This document shows, piece after piece, positions 13,535-50,400 of a DNA stretch of 64,000 nucleotides. How positions within the stretch are numbered: position 1 is the stretch's first letter; every line of letters begins with the position of its first letter. Origin of the DNA: Obrimoposthia wandeli (lineage: Eukaryota). Below the pieces are notes generated by a model that was not told the origin of the DNA, searched no databases, and was given only the letters and a program-made list of their open reading frames with translations. The stretch is from NCBI GenBank assembly GCA_977020255.1, contig CDROCS010001417.1, positions 310,001 to 374,000 on the forward strand, written 5' to 3'. The position numbers and the translations under genes were made by a program.

Positions 13535-14643
13535 AAATGTATGTGTTCGATTACTTCCAGTTATAGGGGTACAGCATTTATTTTAATAACTTATTTAGTA
13601 ACCTATCCTACCACATTTTCGACATTTAGCTCCCCTAGCTCTACATAACTCACTATATCGCATGTGCTTAACCGAACCACATTTATAGCCAGTTTTCTTG
13701 TTGTCTGTAAAGCTCTACTAAAATTATCTCGTGACATTCCGATCGAAATTTCTGTTTTGATCATCATGACCCACGTTTATTATTTGGTTGTAATAATCAT
13801 TATTACCAACGTTTCTGTAATTATTATTCCCAACGAAATTTGCATCTATGTCATCATCTGTTACATTTTCCTTGACAAAATTCACACCTCTATAATCATC
13901 CTTTACCGACATCATCCGACAATGTTTGTTGGCATTTTTTGCTTTTGCCACTAATGAGGCGAATGTTAATTTTGTTTCGTCATGGTTAAGAAGTGCTCAA
14001 TTAATTTTTCATTCTTAAGTCCAAATATAAATAGGTTGTAGTCAAATCCCAAATCCTAGATGGCTTGGAGCAAAATATATTTAAATTCTGCCGTTTCACG
14101 GATTATAGAATATTAAAACAAGACTTCAAACAAAATATGTCTCTGAGAATTTCTCGTGGGTTATCGAAAAAGGCATTTAATGCACGCTCTTCTAAGTCTA
14201 CATGCATATTCGCTGCTCTGTTCATTTGGTTCTTGTTTTATATTAAATTGTAATAATTTTCTAGCTAATAATATGGACCTACTGTCCTGAAAATATTCTC
14301 GAAATCTGACTATAACATCATCATATGACTTTTTGGGTTTCTCTTAACCCGTCATAAATATCTTATCCGTTTCTTCCTAATGAATTTATTAATAATGATA
14401 ATTTATTTCCTTCAACCCTAACCTCATTGATTATTAGTGTATTCTCGAACACTCTTATAAAATGTCAAAAGTCACCTACTTTCGGGCTGTTGCCTAGTAT
14501 CGGAAATGTAGAGTGTACATTGTCTCTAATATTCTTTGGCATTTTATTTCTAAAAATTTCTATTTAATTTAAAGGAATACCAATACCAAATGTATTAATC
14601 CGCTTTATTGCTGCAGTATATTACACGTTTAAAGTCCTACCAG

Positions 14644-17476: not shown

Positions 17477-20400
17477 ATGGATTCTTTGGACGTCTACACG
17501 GATCGAATGCAGCACCTGAAAGGTAATTTGAAAAACTAGTAAAAATATTTCTTATTAGTAAATATGCCAAAATTAATTTAAAAAAAAATTCTGAATAAAA
17601 CAATATAAATAGAATTTTTAGTCAATTTTTTTGAAGTGTTATAAAATTATTATTTAATATTCTTCTTTTTTTCTAAAATTGGGTTTGTCAGATGGCTAAA
17701 ATAAAATTAAACTAAATGAAAACTATATTATAAAATATGATTCGATGAGAAGTAGGCCTATTGTTTCAATAAGAGTCGAATATATTTATTTTGAATGTTT
17801 GTTAGATACCGGTGCAAACCTTAATGTAATTGAAAGATTTTTATTAAGTGATGCACATAAACCACATTTATTGCTTTTCTAAGGGGATTATGAACAGAAT
17901 TTTTTCACTATAAAATGATGAGTTTTATCGAATGCAGACATGATATGGGGTTCTATTATTACGAGTGATGATCATTGTGTCTTATAATAGATGTCAAAAG
18001 GTATTTCAGAATTATTCTGAATAGAAGTAAAAATAATTTTATTTGCTTGATTCAAAAAGTATTTTCTGCTATCCAATTTTACACAAATGAATTAAAATTT
18101 TCGGTGTTATGAAAAAGTGAAATTTGACTTTTGAAGTAATGAAAATCGAAACGTTTACAAACTTTCAATGCTATGATTTTTGGTATAATTTAACTGACCA
18201 TTGCACACATTAGATTAAGGCAGTGGTGGGATTCAAGGGTTCGCACCGGTTCGCGCGAACCGGTTCCTAAAAATATAAAAGTTCGCAGAACCGCCTGAAC
18301 CGGTTCCTGGACTACCTTCTTCGACTGAAACGTAATCATCTGGATAAAAAATATATAATTTTTTAATTCGTTGATTGAACGCATTATTTATTCTTATTTA
18401 TTCTTATATTAATATTAATGGTAAAGTCAAAATTTCAAAACTATTATTAAAATTCAGCAAACATTTAACTACAATATATTAATATTTAAACATAAAAAAA
18501 TCCGAGCACAGATTTTTTCATGTATATATAATATGGTGAAATGAACCTTCTACATATAACAATGGTTCAACCGTTTAAGTAAAATTGATAAATATATTTT
18601 AATGATAAATTATATCGAGTGTTTTACATGTAATTTGTAATGGGATATTATAATATGATACACAGTGTATGTTTAGTAAACATCGTTAGCCCTGAATCAT
18701 GGGATATTGATGAAGTTGTTGTACCGTGGAAACAAGCTGAAGAAAAATTACCCGGATTCTATAAGCAGTTTCACCATAAAATATGCGTTAACGATTTCCG
18801 TGACTATGTAGAAAATGTTATAGAAAACCGTCCCAATCAAGATGTTCCTTCTACAATACAAAAAGCAAAAAATATTATTAATACAATTGCTTTGAGTTCT
18901 GCTGAAGCGGAACGCGGATTTTCAGTTATGAATGTGATATATAGCGATAAAAGGAATCGTCTTGAAGTTCAAAATGTCGCAAATCTTATGGTAATAAAGT
19001 TAATTGGTCTTCCTCTTAATTTATGGGATTCTATGGATTCTGTTAAAACGTGGCTAAGAAAACACCACACAGCTGATGATAAAAGAGTGAAGCATTCATC
19101 TAATAGTTCTTATAATTCTAATGGATTATCAATCTGGAAATATTTGGAATATGATGGTAAATAAAATGATTAATTGAACTTGTTTATTATTAACCACACA
19201 CGGAAAAATTGATTTAATTCCACATCAACCGGTAAATGAGCGAACCGGTTGCTAAACAGTTTGAATCCCACCACTGGATTAAGGCATATCTGAATTAGAC
19301 AAATCTTAATAAATTATGACAGAATATTATTAATTAATATTATATTTTCTAACTTTGAATTTGCTTAACCTTCTTGAAACTGTACGTTCAACAATTGAGC
19401 AATTCTGAAATGTCATTGGGCACTTTATCTGTTAACTTTTCGTTTGGGTTTTTCAATTTTTTTCCCCTTTAAATTTTTTCTGGTACTTAATGCGACATTG
19501 TTCCAGTTGTCTGGTACGTGTTGTACAACGAATGTTATATCAATTCTCTTCATAGATGTTATGGTTTCTGTACAGGAGTCATTAGCCAAAAGCATAGCTT
19601 CGCCAATCCATTTTCTTTACTACCGCTTGGTGTTCTCAATGGCGCCCTGGCCCAGAGTGAATGAGTGAGGTAACATTTATGAAAGAAAGTATACAGATAT
19701 GAATCTAACTTATGTTGTTAATTGCGACTCCACCGAATGTGGCTAGATGGCCTTTGGAATTGACCAATATTCGAGAGCTTCGCCTTCATGACAGGTCAAA
19801 CTGTTTGTGAAGCCAAGACTTGTATACAGTCATATTATCCAAATAGGCTTCTGACAGTTGTAACAGATTGGAAACTGACGTAAATCCTGTAGATGAAAAA
19901 CATCGATGTTTTGCACTTTTCTAAATCAAATGTATGGGTACATTTATAGATTTTAAAGCGTTTGCGCACAAGTTAAATGGTAGACACTTCATCGCAATGC
20001 TGATGCTAGCCTTTAATTCCAATCTTTATTTTCTTCAAATTAAAAACTTTTTATATTTATGTCTGTCAGCTGAATAAAAATGAATATGGGCTGTATTATT
20101 ATATTTCCCAACTATGAATTTACTCAACATCGTTGAGACTCAACATAATGTAGCGTATACTGTATGGTTTTTTTTTAAACAATTAAGTTATTTTAGACAA
20201 TGGAAACTAGGGAAATCACAACATTTAGAATATTGGAACACTGATAAAAGGTTTCGTTCGAAATATATTTCGCAATTATTTGAAATAATACAATGATAAA
20301 AAAATTTAAGACGACTGATCAGATGAGTTGAAAAAATATGGGAAGCAATAAGAGAAGACAATATAAGAATCTTTACTAAATTTCCAATTAGAAGGAATTT

Positions 20401-23400: not shown

Positions 23401-26400
23401 TCGTTGGTGGATTCTATGCCTTGTAATGTTTACGCTGACCTCAGATAAGTGAGGCAGTGCGAATTAATACATGACCTTTGACCTACATTTTAAGTGGCAA
23501 CTGAACAGGAAAATTGAGAGTTGTAAACATTCTGAACCATTCTGTGTTCAGCGGTTTATAGCTGCTGATTTATTCTAGTGACACGTTACCAAACCATTTC
23601 AATACAATGTAGTATGTGATTTGGAAAGTATTGTAACCGTCTGGACACTTTTATCCGTTATATGCCTTGAGTAATATTTGATACAAATCCGTTACTGACA
23701 ATTAAAAGTACATTATCCCCATTTATAAATTCTGATCAGTTATCTGGAGATTACGAACCGTGATAGTTCAAGGATAGAATGCTACGACTTTTATGAGAAC
23801 TCCCATTTAATTCTCAGTCTCGGCAACTAACTTTCTCTTGAATCAAACTCATACAGTGCACTTTTAAGAATTTATTGTAATTTCAGTCCAGAATTTAATT
23901 TACTACGTAACATAAAACTACATTATTTAACCCATTTGATGCCATACTTCGTTTAAACGAATAATGCATTTCTTTGAGCAACTGATACTTTTTCCTATTG
24001 TTAAAATTAAAATACTTCGATTAAGCAATATTATAGCGCTTTATTTTCATTCTTTAGGTATTTTAAAGATAAGTGAACGAATAAAATATATTTAAAACAA
24101 ATTTATGCTGATCTATGGATCAAGCAAGAAGATCATTATAAGAAAAAAAATTTAATTACAAGTCAGTTGATTACATAAAAATAGTTAGAAAATTATTTCT
24201 TATGAAAACTTGTCAAATTTTCACAATTTTCTATTTCGTCAATATTCATTTAAAATACAGCTAAATCCCGTTAAATACCGTGAAAACTTTCTACTACATA
24301 TGATTTTAAAGGGTTTTTGAGGAACCACGGGTCATAAAAATTACTTGTTAATAAAGAATCACAATCGACTAGACATCACAAAGCTGCTTCACCATACAAT
24401 GTTAGAACCGATCTTCAAGGTACTACTAAGCGTCGCTGAGCACAACAATTACACTCATAAAATGTGTCTTTCAATGTGTCTTATCAATTTTCATCAAGTA
24501 TAAGTAGGTGGATGTGTCCGGTCTAATCCACATCCCCCCTTGTCCTTTAAGACCGTGCATGTGTGTGGAGTGAAATTTCGTGTAGGTTTGTGGAGTGAAA
24601 TTTCACTCCACACACATGCACGGTTTTAAAGGACAAAGGGGGGGCCCTAACATTTTTTCGCGCCTCACGGCGCGAAGGGCTCGGGACTGATATAGGTCAC
24701 AGACTAGCTTGGCGATGTGCAGATGTCTGGCTCTCATATATGTCACAGACTAGCTTGGCGATGTGCAGATGTCTCGCTCTCATATATGTCACAGACTAGC
24801 TTGGCGATGTGCGGATGTATCGCTCTCATATATGTCACAGACTAGCTTGGGCGATGTGCGGATGTCTCGCTCTCATATATGTCACAGACTAGCTTGGCGA
24901 TGTGCAGATGTCTCGCTCTCATATATGTCACAGACTAGCTTGGGCGATGTGTGGATGTCTCGCTCTCATATATGTCACAGACTAGCTTGGGCGATGTGTG
25001 GATGTCTCGCTCTCATATATGTCAAAGACTAGCTTGGCGATGTGCGGATGTCTGGCTCTCATATATGTCACAGACTAGCTTGGCGATGTGCGGATGTATC
25101 GCTCTCATATATGTCACAGACTAGCTTGGGCGATGTGCGGATGTCTCGCTCTCATATATGTCACAGACTAGCTTGGCGATGTGCGGATGTCTCGCTCTCA
25201 TATATGTCACAGACTAGCTTGGCGATGTGCAGATGTCTCGCTCTCATATATGTCACAGACTAGCTTGGGCGATGTGTGGATGTCTCGCTCTCATATATGT
25301 CACAGACTAGCTTGGGCGATGTGTGGATGTCTCGCTCTCATATATGTCACAGACTAGCTTGGGCGATGTGTGGATGTCTCGCTCTCATATATGTCACAGA
25401 CTAGTTTGGGTGATGGGCGGATGTCTCGCTCTCATATATGTCACAGACTAGCTTGGGTGATGTGCGAATGTCTCGCTCTCATATATGTCACAGACTAGTT
25501 TGGGTGATGGGCGGATGTTTCACCACACCACACCACACCACACCACACCACACCACACCACACCACACCACACCACACCACACCACAAACAACAACACCA
25601 CCACCGCCCGCCCCTTAGGGGCGGGCTCCATTCTCGCGAAAATAACTACAAAAACATGCGCTACAGTATCACTTTACCTCTCACAACTACACATGTCGAC
25701 AACCCGTGTCATACCCAAGACCCTAACATACATCGCACACCGCCCGCCCTTGGAGGCGGCCTTCATTCTTGATCTTTAGGCACGAAAACATTACAAAATA
25801 TAAATTATTTAAATAAGACGCCATTTTTTTTGTGCCAAATTTAAAATTTTCAAAATGGCTTTTAAACAAAAAAATTTAAAAATTAAAATAAAATTGTTTA
25901 CAAAATTTTTATAGTTTAAAAATAAAATTTCCAACATAATTTTTTACAACAATTTTTATAGTTTAAAAAAATAATTTTACACAGAACTTTTATACTTTAG
26001 AATTAAAATTTTAAACTTAGAAAAAGACGAATTGGATACAAATATTTATTAAACCAAAGAGAAAATTAGGTACATTAAATTTGTGACATACAAATTCAAA
26101 CATACAAAAAAAATTATTCAAGTGAAAAATCATCTGGATATCTATGATGTCTGTAGACAACTGACCGGTTTTTCTCTACCCATTTTCTCTCATCGTCATT
26201 GCTACTCAATGCGATCTTACTCATATTTACGGTATAGAGCTGGTGATTAATTGAACTAATGCGTTGTTGTTGTTACACTCGTTTACTAACCCCACTATCA
26301 TATGCAGCTAAATAATTCGCATGGCGTAGCACAGTCTGCTTAAGGCTAATTCCCTTTGCTCTCATCTAGAACTTTCCGTCTATAGTTTCTAAGCTATATG

Positions 26401-29400
26401 ATTTGGAGCGTAAAAATACCCATTGCTTATATCTACATTGCTTACTCTCATCCTTAAACTTGCCTATCGCAGTATTGGCTAAAGGATGGTTTATAGAAAA
26501 TTTTGATGTGTCTAATAATCCATCTGAAATCATTGCAGACAACAGTGTAGCTTGCACGTCTACATTATGACACTTTAGAAAAAAATTCTAATTTGGATAT
26601 AAAAAGTTCGATTTTTAATCATTTTATGTTTATATTTATGGATTTTAGAATACATTTTATCGTGTATATTTCAGAATAATGTAAATTAAGATGCAAAGTT
26701 GAATTTTATATCATTTATAAGGATTTTAGTTGACAAATGAATTTACTGTGTAATTTTTCTGAATAATGTAAATTTCGAATTAGAAAGTTCGATTTTCAGT
26801 CAATTTATAGATTAGAAGATACATTTACCAAGGATTTTTAGAATAATGCAAATTATAATGCAATTAATTGATCATTTTTCAATGAATTTACCCATATTTC
26901 TATAAATTTTCTTTGATTTTAGTTTAAGGACAAAATTACTTTCAGAACAAATAAGTTGTATTTACTGACGATTCTTATGTGCCAGCGCGTCAATAAAGTT
27001 TTCATGGTTTCTTATATGGTAGATGCACTAATTGGATTTATTTTCAACATATTTAAAGGATTCCTCCGTGTAATAAAGATATAATTTGAAGAGAGTATAT
27101 AATGATCAATAAGTGAGAGTTTATTACGGACAATTATACGGATAATTAGAGAGATTACTTTGATCAATTAGTCAATTTATGATCAAGAGTATATTATTAA
27201 TCTGCATCTTTAACTAAGAATTTTATTAAATTTCAAAATGATTCATTAAATCTAAAATGTTCTCTACTTTCTTTTAAAAACGTTTTTTTGTAAAAGAATC
27301 TGTAAAAGTTTTGTTAATAAAAAATGATTAGTTTCAAAGAATATTGTTTGAAGATTAGCTTATTTAAGGAAATTAATCTATGTAATAAATAATTAATTAA
27401 ATTATCACTAGTAAACATCGGATATCAATACTATATTGGAACATTTCGTTTAGAAATTATTACATCAGGACTAGAAATGGATTAAATTATATTCTCTCTT
27501 TCGATTCATTTAAACCTAAAATTATTTTCAAGTATCATTTATTGATATAATTTATTCAATAATGTTTAGAGTATGTATTTATCTCAGTCATAATTTATTC
27601 ATATTACTTGAGTCTATTGATAACTATATTCTCAAAACATAATTTTTCATTGATCGATATATCAAACAAGAAAATTCTTGCAAAACTCTACAAGCTTATT
27701 GATTCATTGGTGTTATCAATATTTTGGAAACTTATTTTCAAACATCAACAACTAGTCGATTTATTACTTCAAATAAATCGGTTTAGTAAAGAAATTATAC
27801 ATAAAAGGTTCTATAAGAGAAATTAAGAAGATGCATGAGATTTGTTACATTTAGATGAGATATGACATGGGTGTTTATAAGGTTTAAGAATAGAAAATAA
27901 TGGATAGAGTTTTAGAAGAGAAACTCACGATTTGTTCAAAAGGTTCTCTAGAAGAGTAATTAATACATAGAAGATTAAAGATAAGTAGCGGTTCAGAGGA
28001 GAAATTAACGATACTTTTAGGAGGTATCAAAAATATAGCCTAGATTGGATTATGAAGTGAAATTGATGTGATTTATTTAAGAGATTTAGGAATGGAATTT
28101 AGGAAGTTTATAAAATAATTTATTACATATAAGAGGAAATTTACGAGGTATTTAGAAGGTTATAGAAGAAATATTAATGCATAGAATGGTTATAAAAGAC
28201 AAATTGAAAAAGTGTTTAAGAGGTTTCAGAAGATATATTATAGATTTGAAGTGTTTAGAAAAGATTTAGCAGGAATGTTTAGGAGGTATCAAAAAATATA
28301 GCCTTAAAAGGCGTTTAGAGAAGTATTTAAAAGGAGTATTTAGGAAGTTTCAGAAAAAAGAAATTAAAACCTAAAATTGGTTCATAGGGGAAATTAAAGG
28401 GTTCCAAAGAGAATTTAACCGAGGAGTTCAGAAGAGAAAATATAACCTTAAAGGAGATATATATATATCAATAGGTATTAAGGAAAACTTAAAGAAACAA
28501 CTTCTGAGTATTGATAAAGTCATCATATTTTTATAAAAAATCGGGTGAAATCTTTATGATTACTATTAATAGTTTTGGTTCATATAAATGGATTCTATCT
28601 TCATTAGACATTAAAAATACTTTTAATCAATTAATATTAAGACATTGAATGAAAATTAACGATTTCATTAATACATAGTAAATAAGTTATTTTCAAAGAG
28701 AGTTTTATCGAAGTCATCAATATTATCGTTCCAAAGCCAATATTTAAGCATTTCATCTATTCCTTCTACATTCCTTCAATTAAAATCAAAGCTAGGTATG
28801 ATATTTTTTTAAAGATAATGTTTGAAGTATTTTATTGAAATTTAGATGCAATAATGAAGAATAGTGTTAAAGAATTGACATTAGGATGAATTAGAGGTTA
28901 TATCTGAAAGGGATAATCTAGAATTGATTGATATAAAGAAAATTAGGGTTGATAATAGAGGTTTATGAGAAGGAAAGTTATTGAGAATTATAGGAAAATT
29001 TATAATTATGTTCTAATGTTGGACTTGTGATGAGGAAATTATACCCGGATTGTTATATATGAGAAGAGATAGTAATTAAAACGTATGCAATATTCAAGAA
29101 TATAAATGATTAATTACTATTTATATATGTTTCAAAAGGAAGATATTGAAAATTTCTAAGAGTATTAGTGAGAATGAATCAAATAGTTACAGAGACATAT
29201 CTATCCATTACTTATCAATTTCATCCATCGTTTCAAATTCATGGATCATCTGATTCAATCAATAACTTTAAACATAACATAGAAATCTCTGGAAGATGCT
29301 TCGTGATCATAAATAGTCTTAACCCAAGATCTCAAAGAAAGTTATACCGAAATTATATAGATTTAACTAATATCCAAAGACTACATCCAAAGTCAATACT

Positions 29401-32400
29401 CAAGCATCTTATCTACATTCATTTCATCAGCCAGCCTTGAATCATCATTGATATGATATTTATAATGTAGCATTTCATGAAGCAATGCAAAGTAGAAGAA
29501 GATATTACGAAGTATTTAGGAGATTTCAGAAGAGAAAATATACCCTAAATAAATTGAGGAATTAATCAGATATTGTGATGTATGACGGAATATTAAGAAA
29601 GTTTTAGAAGCGAGATGGGTTATTTTCTCTTCAAGCAACTCTAAAAGGACTGCATAATGCATACAAATCATCACGATAATAACATGTATTGCATGACGAA
29701 ATCTTTACATAACCTCATATATTATTGATTATTTTCAAAGTTAGTTATACTGAAATGATCAATAATGTATGTATTGTATCAATATTATGCACAAACCTGA
29801 TGAAAATACCTCATGTCAAAGAATCTTATATCAAATTTACAATCATAACAGGTATTTAAGATGATTTTATATCACATGTAATTGATAATTTTCTTAAGAA
29901 ACTGATACCAAAGTAATAATATTGCATATAATTCTTCAATATTATAACAGTTATCGTAAGCTTTAAAGTTCTATATAAAACCTTGAAAGACATATGGTGA
30001 TTATTGAAAGTTGTACTTAAATTATCAATATTTTACTATTATTTCAATATAGTAAGTCATATTCAAGTTTTTCATATTTTTCTTCTACTCATCAAATTGT
30101 ACACAGTCATTAAATACTTCAATTAAATCACCATTAAGGTTAAGTGTGAAGTAATAATAAGTAGAATAATTACGGTATATTTAAGAGCTTTAAGAAAATA
30201 AAGTGAACCATATTGATTATTTTCTCAAGAAACTTATACTACGTCAATATCATGATCAGATAATCAATTATGATTTTATATAATCTTTAAGAGAATGCTT
30301 ACTACTACATCAGTTTCTATATGGACTAAACGATAAAATCAAAAATCACCCAGCACTACTAGAAGTAAAAAATTTTCAACAAGCCATAAATGAAGAACAA
30401 CTTGTAGAAGTAGTGAGAAGTGATGACTTATTTTGTATAATTGATTCTACTTTTATTTGTGAGTAGAAAACGTTTTTGTAATCTTAAGCTATTTATCACA
30501 CATTTTTAAACCTATGAGTTAAACAAGTAAATAGAGATAGCAAAGAATAATTTTTATTAAAGATACATACATTGTTACACCATCATCTCTTCACAATATC
30601 ATAATCTTCATTACTTCGATCCATCTTCATTATCACAATCCTTCTTCTCATCAAAGCAATCACTCATCTTCAACCTTCATTATCACAATCTCTATTCATT
30701 CATCTTCATTATCGTGATTAATTAAAATAATCAATACATTTTTAAATATACATTTTAAAATATGTAGAGAAATATATATTATGTACTGATTTATACATGT
30801 TCAGAGATGGAATTTAACAAGGTGTTTACAGAGGAGAATTCTTCGAGAAAAGTTATTTAGTGATATTATTCAATTGTTTATTCTTTGAAGTCCGATTCAA
30901 ATTGATTGATAATGTTGTTTATGTAAATCGCTTCGTATTAGTCATATCCTTGAAGGGCTCACGTTCTTCGGTTACACGCGTGGGTCTTGTTATTGTTTCA
31001 GTTACTGGATTAATATTTTCTCTATGATTATTTCTATTATAATCCATATTAGCATATAAATTACTACCAGAACCAATATATGTGCTTGCTCTATCTTGAT
31101 TATCCATTTTCAATAAAAATCAATATCGGAATATTGTTTATAGAGATAATTTGTAATCTAAAAATAGATTTTCAAATAATATATAAGAATTAGTTTATAA
31201 TAATCAGTTTATAATAACCAGAAATGTTACTTCATAATATCAAATTTGTGAATATTAATTACAAGGGAATGGTTGTAAGCAATATTCAACACTTTAGTAG
31301 TAGGTGGAAGGATGGAGTCTAGACCACTTGACCCCCCCCCCTAAAGGGTGTCACACCATAAGGATGTCTCGCCACACCATAAGGGTATATGTTGGGTCAC
31401 CGGAGGTGAGGCAACATATACCCTTATGGTGTGGCGAGACATCCTTATGGTGTGACACCCTTTAGGGGGGGGGGGTCAAGTGGTCTAGACTCCATCCTTC
31501 CACCTACTTTTACCATTTCGAAGCCACATCAGTACCGACACAAGTGTGATAGTTATACTATCTGGTACAAATCTGGTAATATATTTTACATTTAAGTTTT
31601 AATATAATTTTGGAACATGTCGAATCATGGGGTGTAAAGCTGTGCTATATGAAAGCACTCTTCCGTTCAATATCAAAATCGAGAGAATTCAATCAATCAG
31701 TGTCAGTACTTAGTACTTAGAAAAACCAATAAACCTGAGTAAGATGAGTAAGAGTATGAGAATGGAAGCAGTTTACGAACCAGAAATTTTTCCAGGGCTA
31801 CGTTATATCAAATACAATCCTCTATGCGTGAACATTTTTGCGAGCGGGAAGGGCGATGATACTTGGCGTTAAGACCCTAGAATATGAATATCTTGTTGAA
31901 TGTATTTTATTTAATAAACATCTTCAAACTTGTGTTCTTTCCTAAACAAAGACATTACTTGCAAAAAGATGCAAAGTTGCAAAAGTTGTAATGTTACTAA
32001 AAATATATTTTCCCTTGTTTTCTGAATTATAAACAATACTCTTATAGCTTTAAATTTGTCAATAAAATAGAGAAACTCGGTGAACCATCATCAGCAGAGA
32101 AAAATGAAGAAATTATTGAAGATACTGATAAAGAAGAAAATAAGCGATTGGATTTCTTAAATGCTCTGATTTTTATAGAACTCGTAATAGCTAATGCTTC
32201 CAGTATGGAAATGTCTCATATGTCCCACCTTTTTTGATAGTTTGTTTAGAGCTAGATTTAACCAACTTAGTGTGGAAAAATTAAACAAAACCCCAATGAG
32301 CGAGATTTTAGTAAATCCATTATATATTGAAAATTATCGTGACGGGTTTGATGAAACTGAGATTCTAAAATTGAAATTCACACATGTAATCAATACATCT

Positions 32401-35400
32401 CCAGTGGATAAGATATCTTATAATGAATTAAAGTAAAAATCAATCTATGTAAATACGAAATTAGGAGAAACAGACTAATAATATAATTAAATAAACCATC
32501 AAAAATGGTGGGAAAGTTCTAGTATGTGGTCATTATGGAGGTTTACATGCTGTTTGTATTGTTATTGCATTTTTATCTCTTACAATGAGTGTTAAAACTG
32601 TCGGGAATCTTGCTAAAGTTAAACATAGTATTGCTACACCTAATGCAACTTTGCTTAATCAAATACGTATTTTTAATCATTATCATACAAAAATTGTATT
32701 TCTTATGATTCTCATATCATCTAATCAGATTTTAGTTGTATAGTATATAAACAGTTTACTTTTCAGTCCTACTTCATTATCATGTCTACTCGCAATTATT
32801 TCAAGCAAGATGTTGATCGGGCGGTGAAGAGTTTCATCTCGAAATATCTTATAGAAGAAAATGTTCTGAGACTCATCGAAGCAACGGATCTACCTCTGGA
32901 GGAGCATGTACGAAGAATAATTCACAATAAGGCAGTCAATCTTCTCATTCTGGGCTATAATAAGAAGAAAGAAGAGATGAAAGAAAAGAAGAGGAGCTTT
33001 TTCTGGGAGAAGAGTTTTTTATTGTTTGTTGGTGGATATATTTTAATTAAATATTTTAAGTAACTTTGTCTTATAAACACTATCTTAATACTAATATTTT
33101 TAATATAGACTTAAAGAATAATTATGCATGGAATCTTGCCGTGCTTAATACAACTTTGCTTAATCAAATACGTATTTTTAATCATTATCATACATAAATT
33201 GTATTTATCATGTTTCTACCATTATCCAATCAGATTTTAGTTGTATATAAACAGTCAACGTTTTGACCATACGTCATTATAATCTCTACTCATAATTATA
33301 TCAAACAACATGTTGATTATATATGTCAAACAAACCAGGTATAATTCATAAATTTCCTCACATATATCAATCAATTTTAGATTATCCCTTTCAGATATAA
33401 CCTTGAAGATGAGTGATTGCTTTGATGAGAAGAAGGATTGTGATAATGAAGATGGATCGAAGTAATGAAGATTATGATATTGTGAAGAGATGATGGTGTA
33501 ACAATGTATGTATCTTTAATAAAAATTATTCTTTGCTATCTCTATTTACTTGTTTAACTCATAGGTTTAAAAATGTGTGATAAATAGCTTAAGATTACAA
33601 AAACGTTTTCTACTCACAAATAAAAGTAGAATCAATTATACAAAATAAGTCATCACTTCTCACTACTTCTACAAGTTGTTCTTCATTTATGGCTTGTTGA
33701 AAATTTTTTACTTCTAGTAGTGCTGGGTGATTTTTGATTTTATCGTTTAGTCCATATAGAAACTGATGTAGTAGTAAGCATTCTCTTAAAGATTATATAA
33801 AATCATAATTGATTATCTGATCATGATATTGACGTAGTATAAGTTTCTTGAGAAAATAATCAATATGGTTCACTTTATTTTCTTAAAGCTCTTAAATATA
33901 CCGTAATTATTCTACTTATTATTACTTCACACTTAACCTTAATGGGGATTTAATTGAAGTATTTAATGACTGTGTACAATTTGATGAGTAGAAGAAAAAT
34001 ATGAAAAACTTGAATATGACTTACTATATTGAAATAATAGTAAAATATTGATAATTTAAGTACAACTTTCAATAATCACCATATGTCTTTCAAGGTTTTA
34101 TATAGAACTTTAAAGCTTACGATAACTGTTATAATATTGAAGAATTATATGCAATATTATTACTTTGGTATCAGTTTCTTAAGAAAATTATCAATTACAT
34201 GTGATATAAAATCATCTTTAATACCTGTTATGATTGTAAATTTGATATAAGATTCTTTGACATGAGGTATTTTCATCAGGTTTGTGCATAATATTGATAC
34301 AATACATACATTATTGATCATTTCAGTATAACTAACTTTGAAAATAATCAATAATATATGAGGTTATGTAAAGATTTCGTCATGCAATACATGTTATTAT
34401 CGTGATGATTTGTATGCATTATGCAGTCCTTTTAGATTAAATTCCGTCAGATATTTCAATTTATTTATGAAATCTCCTAAATACTTCGTAAGCATTGCTT
34501 CATGAAATGCTACATTATAAATATCATATCAATGATGATTCCTGGCTGATGAAATGAATGTAGATAAGATGCTTGATATTGACTTTGGATAGTCTTTGGA
34601 ATTAGTTAAATCTATATAATTTCGGTATAACTTCTTTGAGATCTTGGGTTAAGACTATTTATGATCACGAAGCATTTCCAGAGATTTCTATGTTATGTTT
34701 AAAATTGATTGATGATGATTTAATCATGGATAAATTGATAAGTAATGGATAGATATGTCTCAACTATTTGATTCATTCTCACTAATACTCTTAGTTTTCA
34801 ATATTTTCCTTTTGAAACATTATCATTTATATTCTTGTATTGCATACCTATCTCTTCTCATATATAACAATCCGGGTATAATGACTTATAAGTAGCTCTA
34901 ATTCATCCTACAACATATTTTTCATTATTGATTATTTCAATCTTCAACATTATCTTTAAAATATCAACCTAGCTTTGATTTTAATTGGGAATAGAAGGAA
35001 TGCTTAAATATTGGCTTTGGAACATAATATTGATGACTTCGATAAAACTCTCTTTGAAAATAACTTACTCGTTAATTTTCATTCTGTCTTAATATTAATT
35101 GATTAAAAGTATTTTAATGTCTAATGAAGATAGAATCCATAAACCAAAACTCTAACTTCTAAAACTCTAATTCTAACACTAACATCATTTTCCAAAAATA
35201 TATATGCGAAAAATTTACAAGAAGATGGTAAAAGTTTGAATAATATCTCTGCTTTTGTAAAAATTGTCTTCGTTATGGCCGAAATATGAGTAAAATACTT
35301 ATGATTAATTTTTGGTATAACTCGCTTTGAAGCAGTATAAAGCTGAAATTCAATATGATCGCTTATATCATAATCTTAAATGAAATGACCGTAATTTTGA

Positions 35401-38400
35401 TAAAATACGATTTCACTACAGTTTTAGAACAGTAGACTTATTTCCCTTCTAAACCACCTAAATATCTTCTAACTCACATTAAATTTCCTTTCAAAGTCAA
35501 ATATATCCTATATTTTTTCTTCTGAATCCTACTAACCTTATATACATCGCTTTTATTTTCATTCAATCTAGCTATCTAGGCTATATTTACCAAAACCTCC
35601 TAAACATTCCTGCTAAATCTTTTCTAAACACTCCAAATCTATAATATATCTTCTGAAACCTCTTGAACACTTTTTCAATTTGTCTTTTATAACCATTCTA
35701 TGCATTAATATTTCTTCTATAACCTTCTAAATACCTCGTAAATTTCCTCTTATATGTAATAAATTATTTTATAAACTTCCTAAATTCCATTCCTAAATCT
35801 CTTAAATAAATCACATCAATTTCACTTCATAATCCAATCTAGGCTATATTTTTGATACCTCCTAAAAGTATCGTTAATTTCTCCTCTGAACCGCTACTTA
35901 TCTTTAATCTTCTATGTATTAATTACTCTTCTAGAGAACCTTTTGAACAAATCGTGAGTTTCTCTTCTAAAACTCTATCCATTATTTTCTATTCTTAAAC
36001 CTTATAAACACCCATGTCATATCTCATCTAAATGTAACAAATCTCATGCATCTTCTTAATTTCTCTTATAGAACCTTTTATGTATAATTTCTTTACTAAA
36101 CCGATTTATTTGAAGTAATAAATCGACTAGTTGTTGATGTTTGAAAATAAGTTTCCAAAATATTGATAACACCAATGAATCAATAAGCTTGTAGAGTTTT
36201 GCAAGAATTTTCTTGTTTGATATATCGATCAATGAAAAATTATGTTTTGAGAATATAGTTATCAATAGACTCAAGTAATATGAATAAATTATGACTGAGA
36301 TAAATACATACTCTAAACATTATTGAATAAATTATATCAATAAATGATACTTGAAAATAATTTTAGGTTTAAATGAATCGAAAGAGAGAATATAATTTAA
36401 TCCATTTCTAGTCCTGATGTAATAATTTCTAAACGAAATGTTCCAATATAGTATTGATATCCGATGTTTACTAGTGATAATTTAATTAATTATTTATTAC
36501 ATAGATTAATTTCCTTAAATAAGCTAATCTTCAAACAATATTCTTTGAAACTAATCATTTTTTATTAACAAAACTTTTACAGATTCTTTTACAAAAAACT
36601 TTTTTAAAAGAAAGTAGAGAACATTTTAGATTTAATGAATCATTTTGAAATTTAATAAAATTCTTAGTTAAAGATGCAGATTAATAATATACTCTTGATC
36701 GTAAATTGACTAATTGATCAAAGTAATCTCTCTAATTATCCGTATAATTGTCCGTAATAAACTCTCACTTATTGATCATTATATACTCTCTTCAAATTAT
36801 ATCTTTATTACACGGAGGAATCCTTTAAATATGTTGAAGAGAAATCCAATTAGTGCATCTACCATATAAGAAACCATGAAAATTTTATTGACGCGCTGGC
36901 ACATAAGAATCGTCAGTAAATACAACTTATTTGTTCTGAAAGTAATTTTGTCCTTAAACTAAAATCAAAGAAAATTTATAGAAATATGGGTAAATTCATT
37001 GAAAAATGATCAATTAATTGCATTATAATTTGCATTATTCTAAAAATCCTTGGTAAATGTATCTTCTAATCTATAAATTGACTGAAAATCGAACTTTCTA
37101 ATTCGAAATTTACATTATTCAGAAAAATTACACAGTAAATTCATTTGTCAACTAAAATCCTTATAAATGATATAAAATTCAACTTTGCATCTTAATTTAC
37201 ATTATTCTGAAATATACACGATAAAATGTATTCTAAAATCCATAAATATAAACATAAAATGATTAAAAATCGAACTTTTTATATCCAAATTAGAATTTTT
37301 ATTCTAAAGTGTCATAATGTAGACGTGCAAGCTACACTGTTGTCTGCAATGATTTCAGATGGATTATTAGACACATACAAATTTTCTATAAACCATCCTT
37401 TAGCCAATACTGCGATAGGCAAGTTTAAGGATGAGAGTAAGCAATGTAGATATAAGCAATGGGTATTTTTACGCTCCAAATCATATAGCTTAGAAACTAT
37501 AGACGGAAAGTTCTAGATGAGAGCAAAGGGAATTAGCCTTAAGCAGACTGTGCTACGCCATGCGAATTATTTAGCTGCATATGATAGTGGGGTTAGTGAA
37601 CGAGTGCAACAACAACGCATTAGTTCAATTAATCACCAGCTCTATACCGTAAATATGAGTAAGATCGCATTGAGTAGCAATGACGATGAGAGAAAATGGG
37701 TAGAGAAAAACCGGTCAGTTGTCTACAGACATCATAGATATCCAGATGATTTTTCACTTGAATAATTTTTTTTGTATGTTTGAATTTGTATGTCACAAAT
37801 TTAATGTACCTAATTTTCTCTTTAGTTTAATAAATATTTGTATCCAATTCGTCTTTTTCTAAGTTTAAAATTTTAATTCTAAAGTATAAAAGTTCTGTGT
37901 AAAATTTTAATTCTAAAGTATAAAAGTTCTGTGTAAAATTATTTTTTTAAACTATAAAAATTGTTGTAAAAAATTATGTTGGAAATTTTATTTTTAAACT
38001 ATAAAAATTTTGTAAACAATTTTATTTTAATTTTTAAATTTTTTTTGTTTAAAAGCCATTTTGAAAATTTTAAATTTGGCACAAAAAAATGGCGTCTTAT
38101 TTAAATAATTTATTTTTTGTAATGTTTTCGTGCCTAAAGATCAAGAATGAAGGCCGCCTCCAAGGGCGGGCGGTGTGCGGTGTATGTTAGGGTCTTGGGT
38201 ATTACACGGGTTGTCGACATGTGTAGTTGTGAGAGGTAAAGTGATACTGTAGCGCATGTTTTTGTAGTTATTTTCGCGAGAATGGAGCCCGCCCCTAAGG
38301 GGCGGGCGGTGGGTGGAGTGTTTCGGTGGTGTTGTTGTTTGTGGTGTGGTGTGGTGTGGTGTGGTGTGGTGTGGTGTGGTGTGGTGTGGTGTGGTGTGGT

Positions 38401-41400
38401 GTGGTGTGGTGTGGTGTGGTGTGGTGTGGTGTGGTGGTAGTTAGTGATATACACGAGAGCGAGACATTCGCACATCACCCAAGCTGGTCTGTGACATATA
38501 TGAGAGCGAGACATCCGCACATCGCCAAGCTAGTCTGTGACATATATGAGAGCGAGACATCCGCACATCGCCAAGCTAGTCTGTGACATATATGAGAGCG
38601 ATACATCCGCACATCGCCAAGCTAGTCTGTGACATATATGAGAGCGAGACATCCGCACATCGCCAAGCTAGTCTGTGACCTATATCAGTCCCGAGCCCTT
38701 CGCGCTAAAAGGCGCGAAAAATTTTGAGGGGGTAGGACCCCTCCCTTGTCCTTTAAAACCGTGCATGTGTGTGGAGTGAATTTTTACTCCACACACCTAC
38801 ACGAAATTTCACTCCTCACACATGCACGGTTTTAAAGGACAAGGGTGAGGGGGTGTGGATTAGACCGGACACATCCACCTACTAGTATACTTTAATTTTA
38901 ATCTAAACTGATTTAGAAGGCTGGATGAAAAAGTTATGAAGCACAGGTTTACATGATGTTTCAATCGCTTTATTTCGGTTACTTAGCTAGTGAAGACCTG
39001 ATAACTTACAATAACATAATTGAGATTAATTGAATATGTTTGAAGACAAACTTATTCCTACATATCTTATTTATTCAAAATGCTCGTCGCCATCTTCAAA
39101 TATTATTTCATTTACTAATCAAAAGTGTCACATACAATTTACCGATTGTCCAACTAAACACCAACACGTATCAAACAAGACAGTAAAATGTATTTATAAT
39201 CATTTGTAGTCTGATTGGCCAATTTTGATTTTCAAATTATTATAATTCAGCAGACTATTATTTATCAGCAGTACTTTTGAACGTTTTATTTTGAAAAGTA
39301 GAGGATAGTTAGCTTATACATTTCTTTTCAGAAAGTCACAAGCAGGTGCAAATTAAAACATTCGGAAATTGGATCAACGGTCAATTTGCTAAGGTAACAA
39401 AGTGTGTTATTTGAATAGGACAACTGTTTTTATCAAAGTTTGAATACATAAGTGAGAAATATCACCTCTATATTATTATTTTAGTATTTTTTAGCATTTA
39501 AAAAAATTATTTTGCATCTCTCCTACTTAAAGCATGTTGTGTGCAGAGATGTGGCGATATAAGATTGGAAAATGAATGGCAATTTATTGAGTAAAACAAA
39601 AACGAAGCATACTAATAATTAATTTAACACTGAGAATTAGTGAACTGCCGAAAGAAAAGAAAGTTCCACCAGCAGACATATCTCGAGGAGATAGTGCACT
39701 TTGTTTTGAGATCAGTTTGGCATTTGCCGAGTAATTAGAAGAAACAGTAATCCATACCATTTTTACAGTAAACCATTCCTAACTTTTGTCAGTTTCAATT
39801 CAAATATTCGATAAATATTTTTGTTTCCTAGTAAACAACATTGAATAAAATATAGTTTCATTGAATATGTAGTTGCATTTAGTTCTAGAACTATCTAATC
39901 AATCTCTATTCAGAGTATATCAACCGTGTGAGCTAATGAAGAAAATACTATTTCCTAGTACAGTTAGATGCAAAATTTTGAGGCGCATTGCATAATTTAT
40001 TATATAAGGAGTTAAAATTTCTGTATAGAAAAATTCGTTAAATATTTCATGTATTTATAAAGAAAAGTTAATTCTGAAATGTAAGTTCATATATTTTAAT
40101 TTTATCTCGAATTTTTATCAACTCATCTGCATTACGTTTAAAAGTTATTAGTTAAATTTAATTTTTAATAATATTTAAGTGAAAGAATAATGTAGATAAC
40201 TTTGGAAGCTATTTTAAATATGCGATATATTTCAAAATTGCGATATATTTCAAAATTGCTTTATAAAGTATTATATATTACGATATAATGTGTATGAATA
40301 ATTTTAATAACATTTTATTCAATATATTTCATTTAATAATAAATTCACTAGAGAAGAAATATCACAAAAAATTATTCAAATATAACTAATATTAACAAGA
40401 AAATAAATCCAACTGGGCACCTCTGAATATTAAAATCACTAAATATAAATAAGGGTAAATATTTTTAAGATATCATTTTATCATTCATAACTAAATACAT
40501 GTAAAAACTGAAACTTTGAACTAAAAGTTCAGGTTAATTTTGTTTCAATGCTCTTAAATAGTCAAATTTTCAAAGAAAACATCTTTAGAAAATTTTATTT
40601 CTCATAAATATGTATATAAGTTATATTAATGAAAATGTTTAACTAATTTTTTATATCAAAAAGTAAAGTTAATAATTATAATGTATTTTCGATTCATTTG
40701 ATGTTCAATCTCAACATTGCATTTAACCTAAATACATTTTGAAAATAACTTAAATAAGCATATACTTCAAAAGATTTCAAACTTAAAAGAAAATCATTTT
40801 AGTTTGTAGTAAAAGTTAATTTAATATTTATTAGTCCATAAAGTAAAATAAATTAATTAACTTTTATCATATGTTTATGAATAAATACAGGCAATATTTA
40901 AAATTTGTATTAACGACAATATTTTATATTTGAATTCATATCAACCTATTTATGCAATTTCATAAGGTTCAAACAAATAATGCACAATATAATGAAAATT
41001 GTAGATTAATAATTTTAATACTGATGACAACTATAGAGAAATTCATATATAAAATGATAAAAATTATTTGAATATAAAGAAAATTTGTCATTTTGAGTCA
41101 AAAATGTTTCCTTGTGAGAATTAAAAGACAATAAAATGCTCATAGAAGTTATTTCCTTTCATAAGAAAATGTTCATTAGATATTTTAAAGAACCGATAAT
41201 AAATTATTATTACTATTTTATACATATATTTATAAGTAATATTATACTTATTTTACAAACCATTTGAAGTAAAAATGTAATGAATAAACAACTGTACCTT
41301 TGATTTGTTTAACTTATGTTTTATAATAACTACCTAAAATGCCACATAACAACGTGTTATATTTTATACTACACATGGTATATATTTTATTCAGGCTAAA

Positions 41401-44400: not shown

Positions 44401-47400
44401 CTTCACAACTGCTGAAGAGGCATTTGATATTCCAAAAATCCTGGATCCTACAGGTAATTGTATAAATAATTTTTTAAATGTCATATTACTAACTATTTTA
44501 CGTAGTCTATTATTATTATTTTTCATTTTTCACTTTATCCTTGTAAATTGACTTAGATGTCGACGTTCCTGATCCAGATGAGAAATCAATAATGACATAC
44601 GCATCACAGCTGCTCAAATATCGTGCTTCAGCCCCAGCGTCAAAGAAAACGGACGAGAAAGGTTCAGACGTCCCCAATCCGGATTCTACGAAACAACTCG
44701 ACCAAGAAATTATTCCCAAAGTAGACTATTTAACTCATTTCTGCAAATGACTCTAACTCAGGGATGGCGCACCTGTTTTGCGCCATGGATCGCATGGTTT
44801 GCATAAAACATGCACCTATGCATTCCTAAATACAAATATTTATGACTTCAAAAATACTAAGAACCGTTTTAGTGTCTTCTCTGTGGAAGACTCGATGTAG
44901 CAATGAGCTGATTGTTCGAGTCTGTAATCTTTATGCATTGACTAGATTTCACTGCTTAACTCGAGAAAAACGTTGTTCACTTATGTAGGTAGTGCATACG
45001 AAGACAGCAATATCTGGGAACCCTTCTTGGGATAAAATATGTATGTCACTGACCTTGTCCATTGGCAAGTAGTCCGGTAGTATTGTAACATCCCCATTTA
45101 ACGGTGGTGTGAAAAGTTGAAATAGACAATTCCGGATATGGAAATCCTGAAATTCCATACCAAATTCCTGTAACAAGCAGTACAGAACTTCACAAATGTG
45201 CACAGTTATAATTTTGCAGCTGATGGTCCCATAAGTGAGGTTTCGTAGAAAAAACTTTCAAATGATCACATGTGAGATGATTGACTTCTCTATCAGTCTA
45301 TTAGTATGCGCGGCTTATATTCGCTTTCCTCGCTGAATGCTTACTCACAAGGGAAGGCTTCAAACTTGAACACTCAAAATTGAATGAAATATAGCTCATA
45401 TTTACATATTGGTAAAACAAATATATATTCATTCGAGTTTTTTTCGTGTGAGTTCAAAAACAAGTCCGTATATTTACAAAAGAGATGCTAAAGTGTTTGA
45501 TTTGTAAGTTATGAAAAATCCAATATTGGGAGAAAAATAAAATAATCTTATTATAAAATATATCTAAAATATGAACTTCTTAGTTTTAAATTTTATTTAA
45601 ATAGCAACTATTAAAAAATATTTGAAAACATAAATGTCAGAATTTAAAATTTCTAAATATATTTAAAATAAATAAGATTTTCTAAATAATATGGAAAATT
45701 TAATGTAATATTCTTTACACATTTTCTATTTATTATTTTAATTTGCTAATTTAATTAATAGTTAGGCACTTTAATTATTTATTCATATTATATTATATTT
45801 TTCGAATTTAATCATTAGTGAAAGCATAAATAAAATTATTATTTTACAGCATAAATTTAAAACTTTAATAGATCGTATAAAATGAACAAAATCATTTAAA
45901 AAATTGATTTTAAATCAACTATTTGTGTAGAAAGAAAATTTTCACAATATTTGTTATTCACATATTATATTTATTGTTAGGTCTGTATAATAATTAAAAT
46001 TATATTCAACACCAAAATCTTCCGTCCTATTTCTGTGGTCTCTTTTAAGTAAAGCGCGCTGTTCGCAAATGCAGGTAGTTGTGCAATAATATGAAGACAA
46101 TTAGTTACACAATCATACAGGTACAAACATTCAATTAACTAGTTTATTGTGAGATTATAATTATTTACCAAACATTTATTAAATTAATATATGATAAAAT
46201 TAATTAAATGTTTTTCGAAAATATTGAGAGTTTTATTAACTTACAATTGATATATATTTGTTATTTTCGTATATCCATTTTAATCTGTTAATTCGAAGCT
46301 TCTATAATGTAATTTCTTTGTGATTTTATATGGTCCTTCATATCTCATATCTTGTTTATTTCTAACGTCAGTTTTTACCAAAACATTATCATCTATTTCA
46401 AAATTTCTGAAATTGCTTTTTACTTTCATGAGATCTTTCCAATTTTCATTACTATCACTGCTGACTGTGAATAAAAATTATTTAATTTTTTCAAAAGCAA
46501 TTTTAACAGGATTCTAGTTAATTGATGATTGCATTGTAGAGTTCAATGTATATTCAATATTCGGTAGCGCTTCTTCCCAAATTCTGTAAAGCTAATCTTC
46601 TAAACAACATGCAATCCAGTCGCTAATAGTTCTAAATTGACGTTCTACTTGACCATTGGTTTGGTGATGATATGGACTTGAATAATTGATTGTAAAATTA
46701 CTTTTCTTCGCAAGGTCTAACAATAATTTGAATTCAAAACACTTTCCTCTATCTACGTTAATTTTCTTCGGAGCACCAAACTTCAATATCCATTTATCTA
46801 CTAATATATTTATAACAATATTTTAAAATTGAATTCGAACTGACTCTAATACAACATATTTAGAAAATTGATCTATTATAGCCAAAATATTTTTCCATTG
46901 ACTGTAGTCTTAAATGGGCCACAAAAATCTACATATAAACTTTCATATGGCTCATTGGCAGATAATGTTATAACTTTTTCTTTAGTACGTCCTGTATAAG
47001 TCTTTCTTTTCTGACAAATCATACATGATTTAACTATACTTGTCATATTTTCCAAATCTCTCATATAAAAGCTATTTTCAATCTGACTTAATACTTTTTT
47101 CAGCCAGCATGATATAAATCTTTGTGCAATTGACCAACAAAAGCTGACCTCTCTTCTAAAGGGATGTAATTTTTTTTACTACGATAGATAATACCAGAAT
47201 TAATGCTGAACTCACAGTTTTCATTATTGTCAATCTGTTTTCTTATATTAAATATATATTTTAAAACTTTTGTAATTCGTGAATTTTTGATTCTCCTGAT
47301 ATAGATAATATTAAAATATAATCTAAATATTCTAAAGCTTCAGTCCAAATCGTATTTTTTAAGATAATTGTCATTAATTTTTGAAATGTTGAAGGAGCAT

Positions 47401-50400
47401 CTGCAATTCCTAAATGCATTCTGTTGAAGCAATATTGTCCAAACTTCGTAGAGAAAGCTGTTTTATGTTAACATTCTTCATCTAATTCAATCTGATAATA
47501 AGCACTTCTTTAGTCTATTGATGAAAAGTATTTTGCGCCATAGAGTGCTTCAAGCATTTCTTCAACAATAAATTCGGCTTCTTGTCGAATGCTTCTTTAA
47601 GCCTATCTTCATAATTCTTCTGGCCATCTGTTTAGTCATATTTTTCACATTTCTCGGTCATAAATGCTCTAATCAGAATATTTCTTTGGCTGACATCCAG
47701 TGATATCATTTCAAAATATGACCTGATCTTCGGCAGGAACTCTTCAACTTCTTTTGATTCTGTATATTCCTTTGGTTGTGGAATACACTTCACGAGTTCT
47801 TCTATACTCAGCTTCCTTGATTCTTGTTGCGTGGTCGCCATGTTAAGTCTGTATAATAATTCAGATTATATTCAACACCAAAATCTGCCTTCCTCTTTCT
47901 GTGTGCTCTTTTAAGTAAAGCGCGCTGTTCGCAAATGCAGGTAGTTGTGCAATAATATGAAGACAATTAGTTACACAATCATACAGGTACAAACATTCAA
48001 TTAACTAGTTTATTGTGAGATTATAATTATTTACCAAACATTTATTCAATTAATATATGATAAAATTAATTAAATGTTTTCCGTAAATATCAGAGTTTTA
48101 TTAACTTACAATTGATATTGTATATACTACAATATATTTAGGAATTACTTTACTTAAAATCATTGTTAATTTGTTATATTTTTGATAAATTAGATAATTT
48201 TATTAACGTTTTAACTAAATACAGAACTATTTTGAGCTCAAACTGAAAGGGTTTTGTGAGAGAATAATTTATTATTAATCAATCAATGTACAATAAATTG
48301 CTTGACTGGCGTATATTTGCTCTTCTGCATGGCATATTATGTGCATAGTATGTTGGCCACCCAGCTTTAATTACTTATAAAAATGAAAAGAAAATCTTTA
48401 AACTTTGTTATAAAGCAGCATTACAACGTTGGTCAGGCTATTATACATCCCAGATAGGCACCCAAACGTTTACAGTTATAAACAGTGATAATTTGACTAA
48501 ACAATAACAGACGCGCAAAACTCACCCAGAAAAAGGTTACGCCTTGATGAGTGTAATGTTCAAAAGCAGACAGATCATCATTTTTTTTTATTTCCATGTA
48601 AATGCTGGGTAGTCTTGAGAGGAATAACACTCATATAAGTTTAAGGTTATGTTATTACTGTTTTGTCTTTCCAATCATTAAGGCAAATGTATATTTCTTC
48701 AATAATCCTAATCTGATTTATTCATTGAAATAAGGTTAAAATGTGAAATAATCAATGAAACGGTGAATAAAAATTAATCATTAAAATAAAACCAAAATAA
48801 TAAGAATGTCAGCAAAAAATTACAATTCGATATTTTTAATATAAATATTTGACTAAATTCGGTTTGGATAGTGCAGAGCCATAAATCACCGATATTTGCA
48901 TATTTGCATATGACAAAAAAAATTGTTTAATATTTGGTTGTTGCACAAATAATGTCGTTTTTTAATAAATACAAATTCAATATAGAAACACACATATTTT
49001 AAATAAGTAAGTTTATCAAAATAGGATCATTTGAATTTATACAATTTTCTCAACAACCTGTTTGAAAAAATTCTCGATTTCTACATTTGAAGAAGTCGCA
49101 CACCTACGATTTTATACTTTCTATATGATGATATTTCTTCCCATCCATGCTTGAAAATAGAAAAATAGATTGGAGCCATGCTTTGTGAGTATGAAGGATG
49201 TGCAAGGAGATCATAATTTAAGCTACTTATCTTCTTCTGTGTTTGAATCTAAACATGTGGTCAGGCATTATCGTGGAGCAAAATGGTTCTTTCCGATTAG
49301 CAAACTGAATTGTTTTAATAATTTTTTTTTACATATATCAATTTTGTTGCAATATGAGTCTGGATTAATTAAAACGCCCGGGGTCCAATACGATGGTACC
49401 ACTGTTGGGAGGCCGAACATTGGGGTTAATACCTTTTTTAGAACATCCAAGGAAATGAAGGGGCTGAAAAGGTCGTGAGACGTAGTGACAGTTTGACGTT
49501 TTTTTAAAAGTGTGGTAAAATAATGCCTTGATGATTTATTGCTTAAGAACCGTTATTATTCAATTCCCTGTTCAAAATATGCAATGAATGAGGAGATTCA
49601 TTTGGGTGACTGTAACAATGAACAGTTTTCAGAATTTTAAGATAATAACTTTCTGGGTTTTGATGACAACTTTAGTTAACTAATTTATATTTATCTAACT
49701 TTGAATGTTGGATTTTATATTTTAATAAAAGTGAAAAATCACCTCAAAATGACAAAAAAGAGATACAAATGAAAATTTCTTTAAATATATTTGTTAAACA
49801 ACATATATACCCTGTCCCAAAACTATATAGAGATTTTATTATCTCTCATTTCAAAAGTTTAAAGCTATTAAATAATGTAGTTGTTAAAATATTTTATTTT
49901 ATTAAAATTCCATCAAAGATTATTTTGTGAAATATAATTTGTCCCAAAACTATAAAGGCATGAACATGTTAAAAGTGATTTAGATCCCTCAAATCAAAGC
50001 GTAACTGTAAGATATGAACGATTTAATGTAACTTATATATTAGAGAATGTAACGTAAAGGACGAATATTTACATAGTAAGAAAGACAGAAAATAGATTAT
50101 TTACATGATATTGGCAAAACGCTATCGGAAATGGCTTCCATTTGTAAAAGATACCTTTGAAATATATCAAACTAAATAAAGAAACCCATATCGTATGGTT
50201 TAGTGAGAACAAAGGGCGGAAGTTTACACCGTATATTAAATAAGTATATATTAAAATATAGCAAAATTAAAATATAACAAAAGAAAGCTCCTGCTTTTAC
50301 CAAATATCACTAAATGAAGCGTGTAAATGTTGTATAAATACTTTAAAAGATAAGAATACCACACAAAAATATTTTTTTAAAGAATGAAAACAACAAAAAT

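Follow-up and report, generated by a model that had tools for sequence, protein, structure and literature searches.

The window analysed here, a stretch of 64,000 nucleotides from Obrimoposthia wandeli, carries at positions 24503 to 38883 a 14.4-kb element (hereafter the host) that fills 22% of the window, has AGTAGG..CCTACT ends and is flanked by a perfect 6-bp target site duplication (TSD), AGTATA. The host is a near-palindrome: 5652 of the 6171 bases of its left arm and 5027 of the 5481 bases of its right arm have an inverted partner, and these arms of about 6 kb enclose a unique centre of 2729 bp (30674 to 33402). One block of the arms contains 2 mismatches in 1034 nt and other blocks are 79 to 96% alike, which suggests patchy homogenisation. 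The terminal inverted repeats (TIRs) also contain (CACCA)n runs and a 46/47-nt tandem array (24690 to 25587 and 38340 to 38685), present in 17.8 versus 5.2 copies. Within the centre, an intact-looking open reading frame (ORF) of 93 residues with a hydrophobic C-terminus (32725 to 33063; no family at the cut-off) is flanked by two copies of a direct repeat of about 175 nt (32641 to 33317).

Each host arm carries a profile match to the C-terminal part of protein-primed DNA polymerase B (pPolB), at 26129 to 26587 on the reverse strand and, as its mirror copy, at 37295 to 37750 on the forward strand. Both remnants point outward and cover only the last ~155 of the 1148 profile positions. The remnant has four relatives among 252 candidates, three of them carrying PF03175. 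When ten profiles from related loci were compared with the host, pPolB and TBP matched and the other eight, integrase and ATPase included, gave nothing (the capsid and protease labels of the seed ORFs are our own assignment by gene order, without a family match). Searching the host with the ORFs of the first 46 loci likewise gave matches, outside the TBP gene, only at one pPolB remnant per arm, together with a weak 27-bit match at the same place as the remnant. Since pPolB and TBP are the sole profile matches, the host is a Polinton-derived, non-autonomous element. An earlier note on this DNA had already called it Polinton-like, and the 6-bp TSD, the long TIRs, the pPolB remnants and the gene content of related loci all agree with that description.

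By base composition and gene set, the window would belong to an AT-rich eukaryote, probably an invertebrate. Several other repeats and relics lie elsewhere in it. These comprise tandem arrays of 48 nt and 55 nt (6475 to 7076), a stretch that we read as a gypsy-like pol remnant, with no Pfam match (12800 to 13582), a hAT transposase dimerisation domain remnant identified by Pfam (18634 to 19164), a probable LTR retroelement remnant with 279-nt direct repeats that start with TG and are 95% alike (45975 to 48118), an integrase-like trace inside that remnant (46346 to 46903) and another integrase-like stretch (51455 to 51929).

The centre of the host holds a broken TBP-like gene on the forward strand (31218 to 31906), with a stop at 31711 to 31713, frame changes near 31590 to 31610 and near 31850, and a 210-base hairpin in its interior. 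Among 25 natural stretches scanned, 31714 to 31869 matched Pfam PF00352 with 29.7 bits (cut-off 22.9), and all eight database relatives of the stretch are unnamed TBP-like proteins of 145 to 161 residues with 50 to 64% identity. These relatives align weakly to the left of the hairpin (31251 to 31286) and strongly to its right (31612 to 31851), so that the hairpin does lie inside a TBP-like gene, where the earlier note had placed it. The gene pieces on its two sides are in the same frame in the window. The same note had proposed by hand that taking out the hairpin with one TTTA copy restores HF-TISKPHQ in frame; the closest empty copies show another junction.

A search of metagenome contigs with an alignment of these eight proteins found 332 relatives among 540 stretches, from which 80 loci were kept. 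ORFs were listed for ten of these, and 16 ORFs from three loci (L003, L008 and L017) were scanned. An rve integrase is present in all three, an A32-type ATPase and TBP were each found in both of the loci tested for them, and L008 encodes a 1148-residue ORF that is a DNA polymerase by PHROGs, with no match in a comparison against solved structures. A short TBP-like gene of about 145 residues, then, travels in Polinton-type elements with integrase, ATPase and polymerase, and it might be a recurrent accessory gene of such elements; we found no report of a TBP-like Polinton gene in our literature library, which is incomplete and has the original Polinton papers and Repbase outside its scope. Beside the Polinton-type gene set of L003, an ORF at positions 225 to 722 appears, in our reading of its sequence, to resemble a ubiquitin-conjugating enzyme. 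In viral contigs, none of 20 stretches was confirmed for the TBP piece of the window, and an alignment search gave three distant loci. The window itself contains a second, more decayed TBP-like relic (10493 to 10946) that has no DNA similarity to the host and no Polinton gene found nearby.

The hairpin (31299 to 31508) consists of a left arm of 103 nt (31299 to 31401, forward strand), a 3-nt loop, GGA (31402 to 31404), and a right arm of 104 nt (31405 to 31508, reverse strand). From its outer end inward, the left arm comprises a terminus starting AGTAGG, a C-run and 58 nt of subterminal repeats. The arms differ from one another by two substitutions beside the loop and by the length of the C-run (C10 versus C11), and in nothing else. 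Both substitutions are in adjacent bases, five nucleotides from the loop and within the 17 central bases, and there are none in the outer 95 pairs. With 14 flanking bases on each side, the single strand is predicted to fold at −129.7 kcal/mol (z −25.7), and none of 200 shuffles folded as well; the arm alignment and the fold thus bear out the two arms of about 103 bp around a 3-nt loop described before. The hairpin is short, non-coding and made of terminal inverted repeats, its G+C content is 54% versus 29% in the host centre, and an Rfam scan of 31000 to 32000 gave no match.

Its sole match within the window is the start of a second element on the forward strand (63455 to 64000), which is cut by the window end after 546 bp and has the same terminus. 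Nucleotides 1 to 43 of the arms match this relative at 91% and nucleotides 46 to 103 at 93 to 97%, the two blocks being separated by ~38 extra nucleotides that are present in the 63455 copy only. Four differences from that copy are common to both hairpin arms, which indicates that the arms come from one source. The right arm agrees with the relative up to and including the last repeat base before the loop, a place at which the left arm is off by two bases. The match to the first ~100 bp at 63455 noted earlier is therefore a true homology, interrupted by the ~38 nt, and by this sequence comparison we assign the arms to the terminus of a sister subfamily of the 63455 element rather than to that copy itself. 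The family would be a second one of Polinton type, judging by its ends: AGTAGG..CCTACT corresponds to the AG(T)...(A)CT motif of Polinton ends, and 26 of 40 terminal bases equal those of the host. Both hairpin boundaries fall on the second-family terminus, exact to the base. Genes of this family were not seen within the window, which includes 546 bp of the relative, and neither its terminal nor its repeat motifs gave a match in viral contigs.

The relative contains tandem repeats of 16, 39, 60 and 99 nt that are rich in CACC-n-GGTG micro-hairpins, and an inner inverted copy of its terminal nucleotides 9 to 44 (63791 to 63828). This inner copy folds with the terminus (63462 to 63829, z −6.4); the host, too, has a fold-back just inside each end, in the form of a 110-nt hairpin after the C-run (24534 to 24642 and 38738 to 38852), and both families share an end design of terminus, C-run, hairpin or repeats, and G-run. 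We considered whether the 210-base hairpin is one terminus cut at such an inner pseudo-end, as in 63455 to 63829, and rejected this because the right arm of the hairpin carries the 58-nt repeat block in inverted orientation, while the repeats of the relative run one way only. A contig joint from 31335 to 31443 probably reflects the natural inner end of the second family. AGTAGGT/ACCTACT words at 14277, 14474 and 17253 were also discarded as further termini, as the terminal sequence does not follow them.

The region is covered by four public runs, whose contigs belong to one sample of one study and are possibly the source of the window. Other members of the host family are empty at the insertion site (31293 to 31514). 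Fifteen of the 73 joints are listed; of these, seven skip the hairpin, with ends at 31292 to 31294 and 31510 to 31523, one is a wider skip, three lie inside the hairpin and four elsewhere. The tightest of those listed, from 31292 to 31510 and thus the closest empty form, skips 217 bases in three of four runs and 218 in the fourth, and the best supported (31294 to 31517) occurs in all four runs with two to six contigs each. Loose ends behind 31294 continue into host sequence in 15 contigs of run X1 and 32 of run X3. Most of them part from the window copy after a few more bases to the right, which makes that copy a minority variant of a many-copy host family; compared with that family it has many private small indels. 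The empty sites in other host copies show that the hairpin is foreign and later than the host family, and their presence in all four runs corroborates the claim that a second-family terminus was inserted here. Contig depth was rejected as a measure of copy number: in X1 it is 102,000 to 156,000 over the hairpin and about 11,000 in the right flank, and one host bin reaches the same depth (123,000).

No contig among the joints listed is stated to bridge the filled junction, and no loose end falls at 31299 or 31508 among the 24 of 1617 entries listed. Palindromes are known artefacts of amplification and of long-read chimeras, so that the first of these observations would fit an assembly or library artefact. 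We consider such an artefact, or a local inversion of host DNA, very improbable: the mirrored DNA is foreign to the host by its G+C content, the host gene is collinear across the hairpin, other host copies have empty alleles, and both ends stop at a family terminus. The empty alleles in particular contradict a local inversion, which the earlier note had named as a refutation.

The target site is less clear. With the boundary at 31299, the flanks TTTAGT and TTTACC match at four of six positions, and random local 6-mers match as well or better in 6.7% of 200,000 draws. The letters given for this putative TSD in the earlier note are correct; the closest empty site, however, is 217 bases shorter, a net gain of 210+7 and not the 210+6 of a 6-bp TSD. 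At the place where the filled site reads three T on either side, the empty site reads two, and an eroded 6-bp TSD would need two substitutions and one extra T. The AGT to the left of the hairpin (31296 to 31298, forward strand) belongs to such an eroded TSD, or else it is an additional terminal trinucleotide that gives an (AGT)2 end on the left only. In the latter case the boundary moves to 31296, the left end becomes AGTAGT, the commonest Maverick end motif in the available text of PMC8097293, and the flanks are reduced to TTT/TTT. Neither reading is clean. As a clean 6-bp TSD is lacking, the role of a Polinton integrase in the insertion is putative.

These irregularities are what would be expected if a free hairpin or end fragment had been captured by DNA repair, end-joined into a break through T-runs without an integrase, with AGTAGT as its left end (213 nt). 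The net gain of 217 fits neither a 6-bp TSD (216) nor a perfect duplication of the empty site, and the boundary at 31296 leaves nothing but the TTT/TTT flanks. Moreover, if the arms, with 0 substitutions in their outer 95 pairs, are taken as a clock, two adjacent changes in a 6-bp TSD would be unlikely, with a chance of ~1% by hand arithmetic at 2 to 3% divergence. The arms may, however, have been homogenised, the private small indels of this host copy make one extra T plausible, and both hairpin termini are intact to the base. Taken together, we regard capture by repair as quite unlikely.

The join is symmetric to the base, both arms stopping at the same homologous base; had the two breakpoints been independent, a spacer no longer than 3 nt would be expected in 0.7 to 4.6% of cases (for TIRs of 1000 to 150 nt). 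The apex maps onto a micro-hairpin of the 63455 relative (63591 to 63604); since micro-hairpins are dense in the second-family repeats, where 370 nt contain 14 centres and 24% of positions are no more than 2 nt away from a centre, this match is weak. A hairpin-guided event is nonetheless likely, and on sequence grounds the fold-back of one end and a microhomology join of two TIRs would give the same product; the joining of two different ends inferred earlier is for this reason one of two candidate origins. One contig of run X2, with 85% likeness, joins left to right at different positions, 31361 and 31406, on an adjacent micro-hairpin, which hints at a recurrence of such events. The host follows the same trend on a larger scale, its arms of about 6 kb comparing with TIRs of 46 to 1,447 bp in intact vertebrate Mavericks in the accessible part of PMC8097293.

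We tentatively favour, at somewhat less than an even chance, the reading that the hairpin arose as a snap-back by-product of Polinton ends and was then integrated. A second-family element that was single-stranded or being copied would have turned back ~103 nt into its end, at a CACC-n-GGTG micro-hairpin, by fold-back priming, a template switch or a microhomology join of two TIRs. The product would be a short molecule consisting solely of two complete termini, a template that the polymerase of a helper could copy. It entered the TBP-like gene of the host, which was non-autonomous by then, end to end and with an irregular junction, and would be a passenger there that does nothing for the host. 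The integrating enzyme would most likely be the rve integrase of the second family acting in trans, which the snap-back reading assumes; counting against this reading are the lack of a clean 6-bp TSD at the hairpin, whereas the host has one, the single copy in the window and the lack of loose ends at 31299 and 31508 among the entries listed. According to the portion of PMC4196379 at hand, the standing model of Polinton replication is a single-stranded, racket-like intermediate, which would favour snap-back products. In the accessible section of PMC10622511, seed mismatches of yeast fold-back products were corrected in all but two clones, so that the two mismatches by the loop are no sure scar of fold-back.

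Alternatively, the site may first have received a larger second-family element, from which microhomology deletion or cruciform breakage subsequently removed all sequence between the TIRs. The 210-bp piece would then be a scar of two TIRs that was never mobile in this form, and its sequence would be the same as that of a snap-back product. Palindrome-stabilising deletions are as a rule asymmetric, and the base-exact symmetry of the hairpin is unlike them. None of the 15 joints listed, out of 73, points to a longer allele at the site, a weak further argument against such a collapse. Conversely, the GGTG on either side of second-family micro-hairpins supplies microhomology, and an older insertion would have allowed its TSD to erode. 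Homogenisation, moreover, acts on palindromic arms here, as in the host block with 2 mismatches in 1034, so that arm identity is no clock. Comparable remnants exist: two-TIR copies are the commonest complete form of Galileo (49 + 38 of 170 copies) in the part of PMC3573991 consulted, and the available portion of bioRxiv 10.1101/2024.01.15.575659 marks Polinton insertions made of TIRs only in strains of C. elegans. On balance we find a collapse in place less likely than not, yet a strong competitor of the snap-back reading.

The earlier note also took the locus as a case of one element parasitising another. This is unsupported: the host has no detectable integrase or ATPase and was probably already dead when the hairpin arrived, and with 22% of the window occupied by a likely dead element, chance nesting suffices and targeting is not needed. 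Any dependence of the hairpin would be on an autonomous element elsewhere. It is tempting to speculate, and we think it unlikely, that hairpins of ~200 bp form a whole family of Polinton satellites in this genome. Each would be a snap-back mini-replicon whose two origins are identical, relying on a helper for the pPolB that copies it and for the integrase that inserts it. If such a family existed, it would represent among eukaryotic transposons what palindromic defective genomes are among protein-primed phages, and together with the 6-kb arms of the host it would mark a continuum of palindromic Polinton parasites, with the hairpins at its small end. It would also imply that ~100 bp of end are enough for Polinton replication and integration, defining a minimal end; we know of no measurement of what Polinton/Maverick elements require in cis to replicate and integrate. 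A hairpin that moved as such would be a ready substrate for assays of end binding, priming and integration, and the single-stranded model of replication would gain evidence at the sequence level from a symmetric join. After a collapse in place or a capture by repair, in contrast, the hairpin would be an ordinary remnant, in a genome rich in repeats.

How does the hairpin compare with known systems? Like MITEs, it is short, non-coding and nearly all inverted repeat. MITEs, by definition, occur in many uniform copies and share a TSD typical of their family, and we do not file the hairpin as one, as its flanks agree at four of six bases and one copy was seen in the 64-kb window. Palindromic mini-replicons in which both ends are one protein-primed origin are known from phage phi29 and from Streptomyces linear plasmids; unlike the hairpin, these are experimental products and not integrated elements. 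As regards Polintons/Mavericks, as far as the available text of PMC8097293 goes, the hairpin is alike in its AGT...ACT ends and the (AGT)2 on its left flank, and the host in its 6-bp TSD, long TIRs and pPolB remnant; relatives of the host TBP-like gene, moreover, share their loci with an rve integrase, an A32-type ATPase and a DNA polymerase. The hairpin differs from the vertebrate Mavericks of that text in being 210 bp rather than 12.7 to 24.6 kb long and geneless, in the lack of a clean TSD and in a right end that is AGTAGG rather than (AGT)2. Polinton_CE_TIR of C. elegans, as far as its description could be consulted, also has Polinton ends without replication genes, with a TIR of 744 bp. 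Further non-autonomous Polintons, among them Polinton-N1A_NV and Polinton-1N1, are named in the accessible parts of PMC11296320 and PMC9341505, gene-bearing Polintons of butterflies have TIRs of about 2 kb in the section of bioRxiv 10.1101/2025.02.07.637071 at hand, and the available part of PMC3014272 records an apparent absence of non-autonomous copies in Anolis. A symmetric hairpin Polinton of ~200 bp was not found in the literature library described above, with the same scope.

Closer in architecture are Galileo and other Foldback-type elements, which in the covered parts of PMC3573991 likewise consist of two internally repetitive TIRs and little else, and whose non-autonomous copies show TIR extension, as does the host. 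Galileo has a P-type transposase and 7-bp TSDs, and a 3-nt spacer is not described in those parts. The inverted duplications of yeast, in the accessible section of PMC10622511, resemble the hairpin in that a short inverted repeat, present beforehand, lies at the centre of a long perfect palindrome; they are experimental products and not integrated elements, and their seed mismatches are usually corrected. Set against these systems, the hairpin is a real remnant of Polinton ends, unusually small and symmetric, inside a related element that is probably dead.
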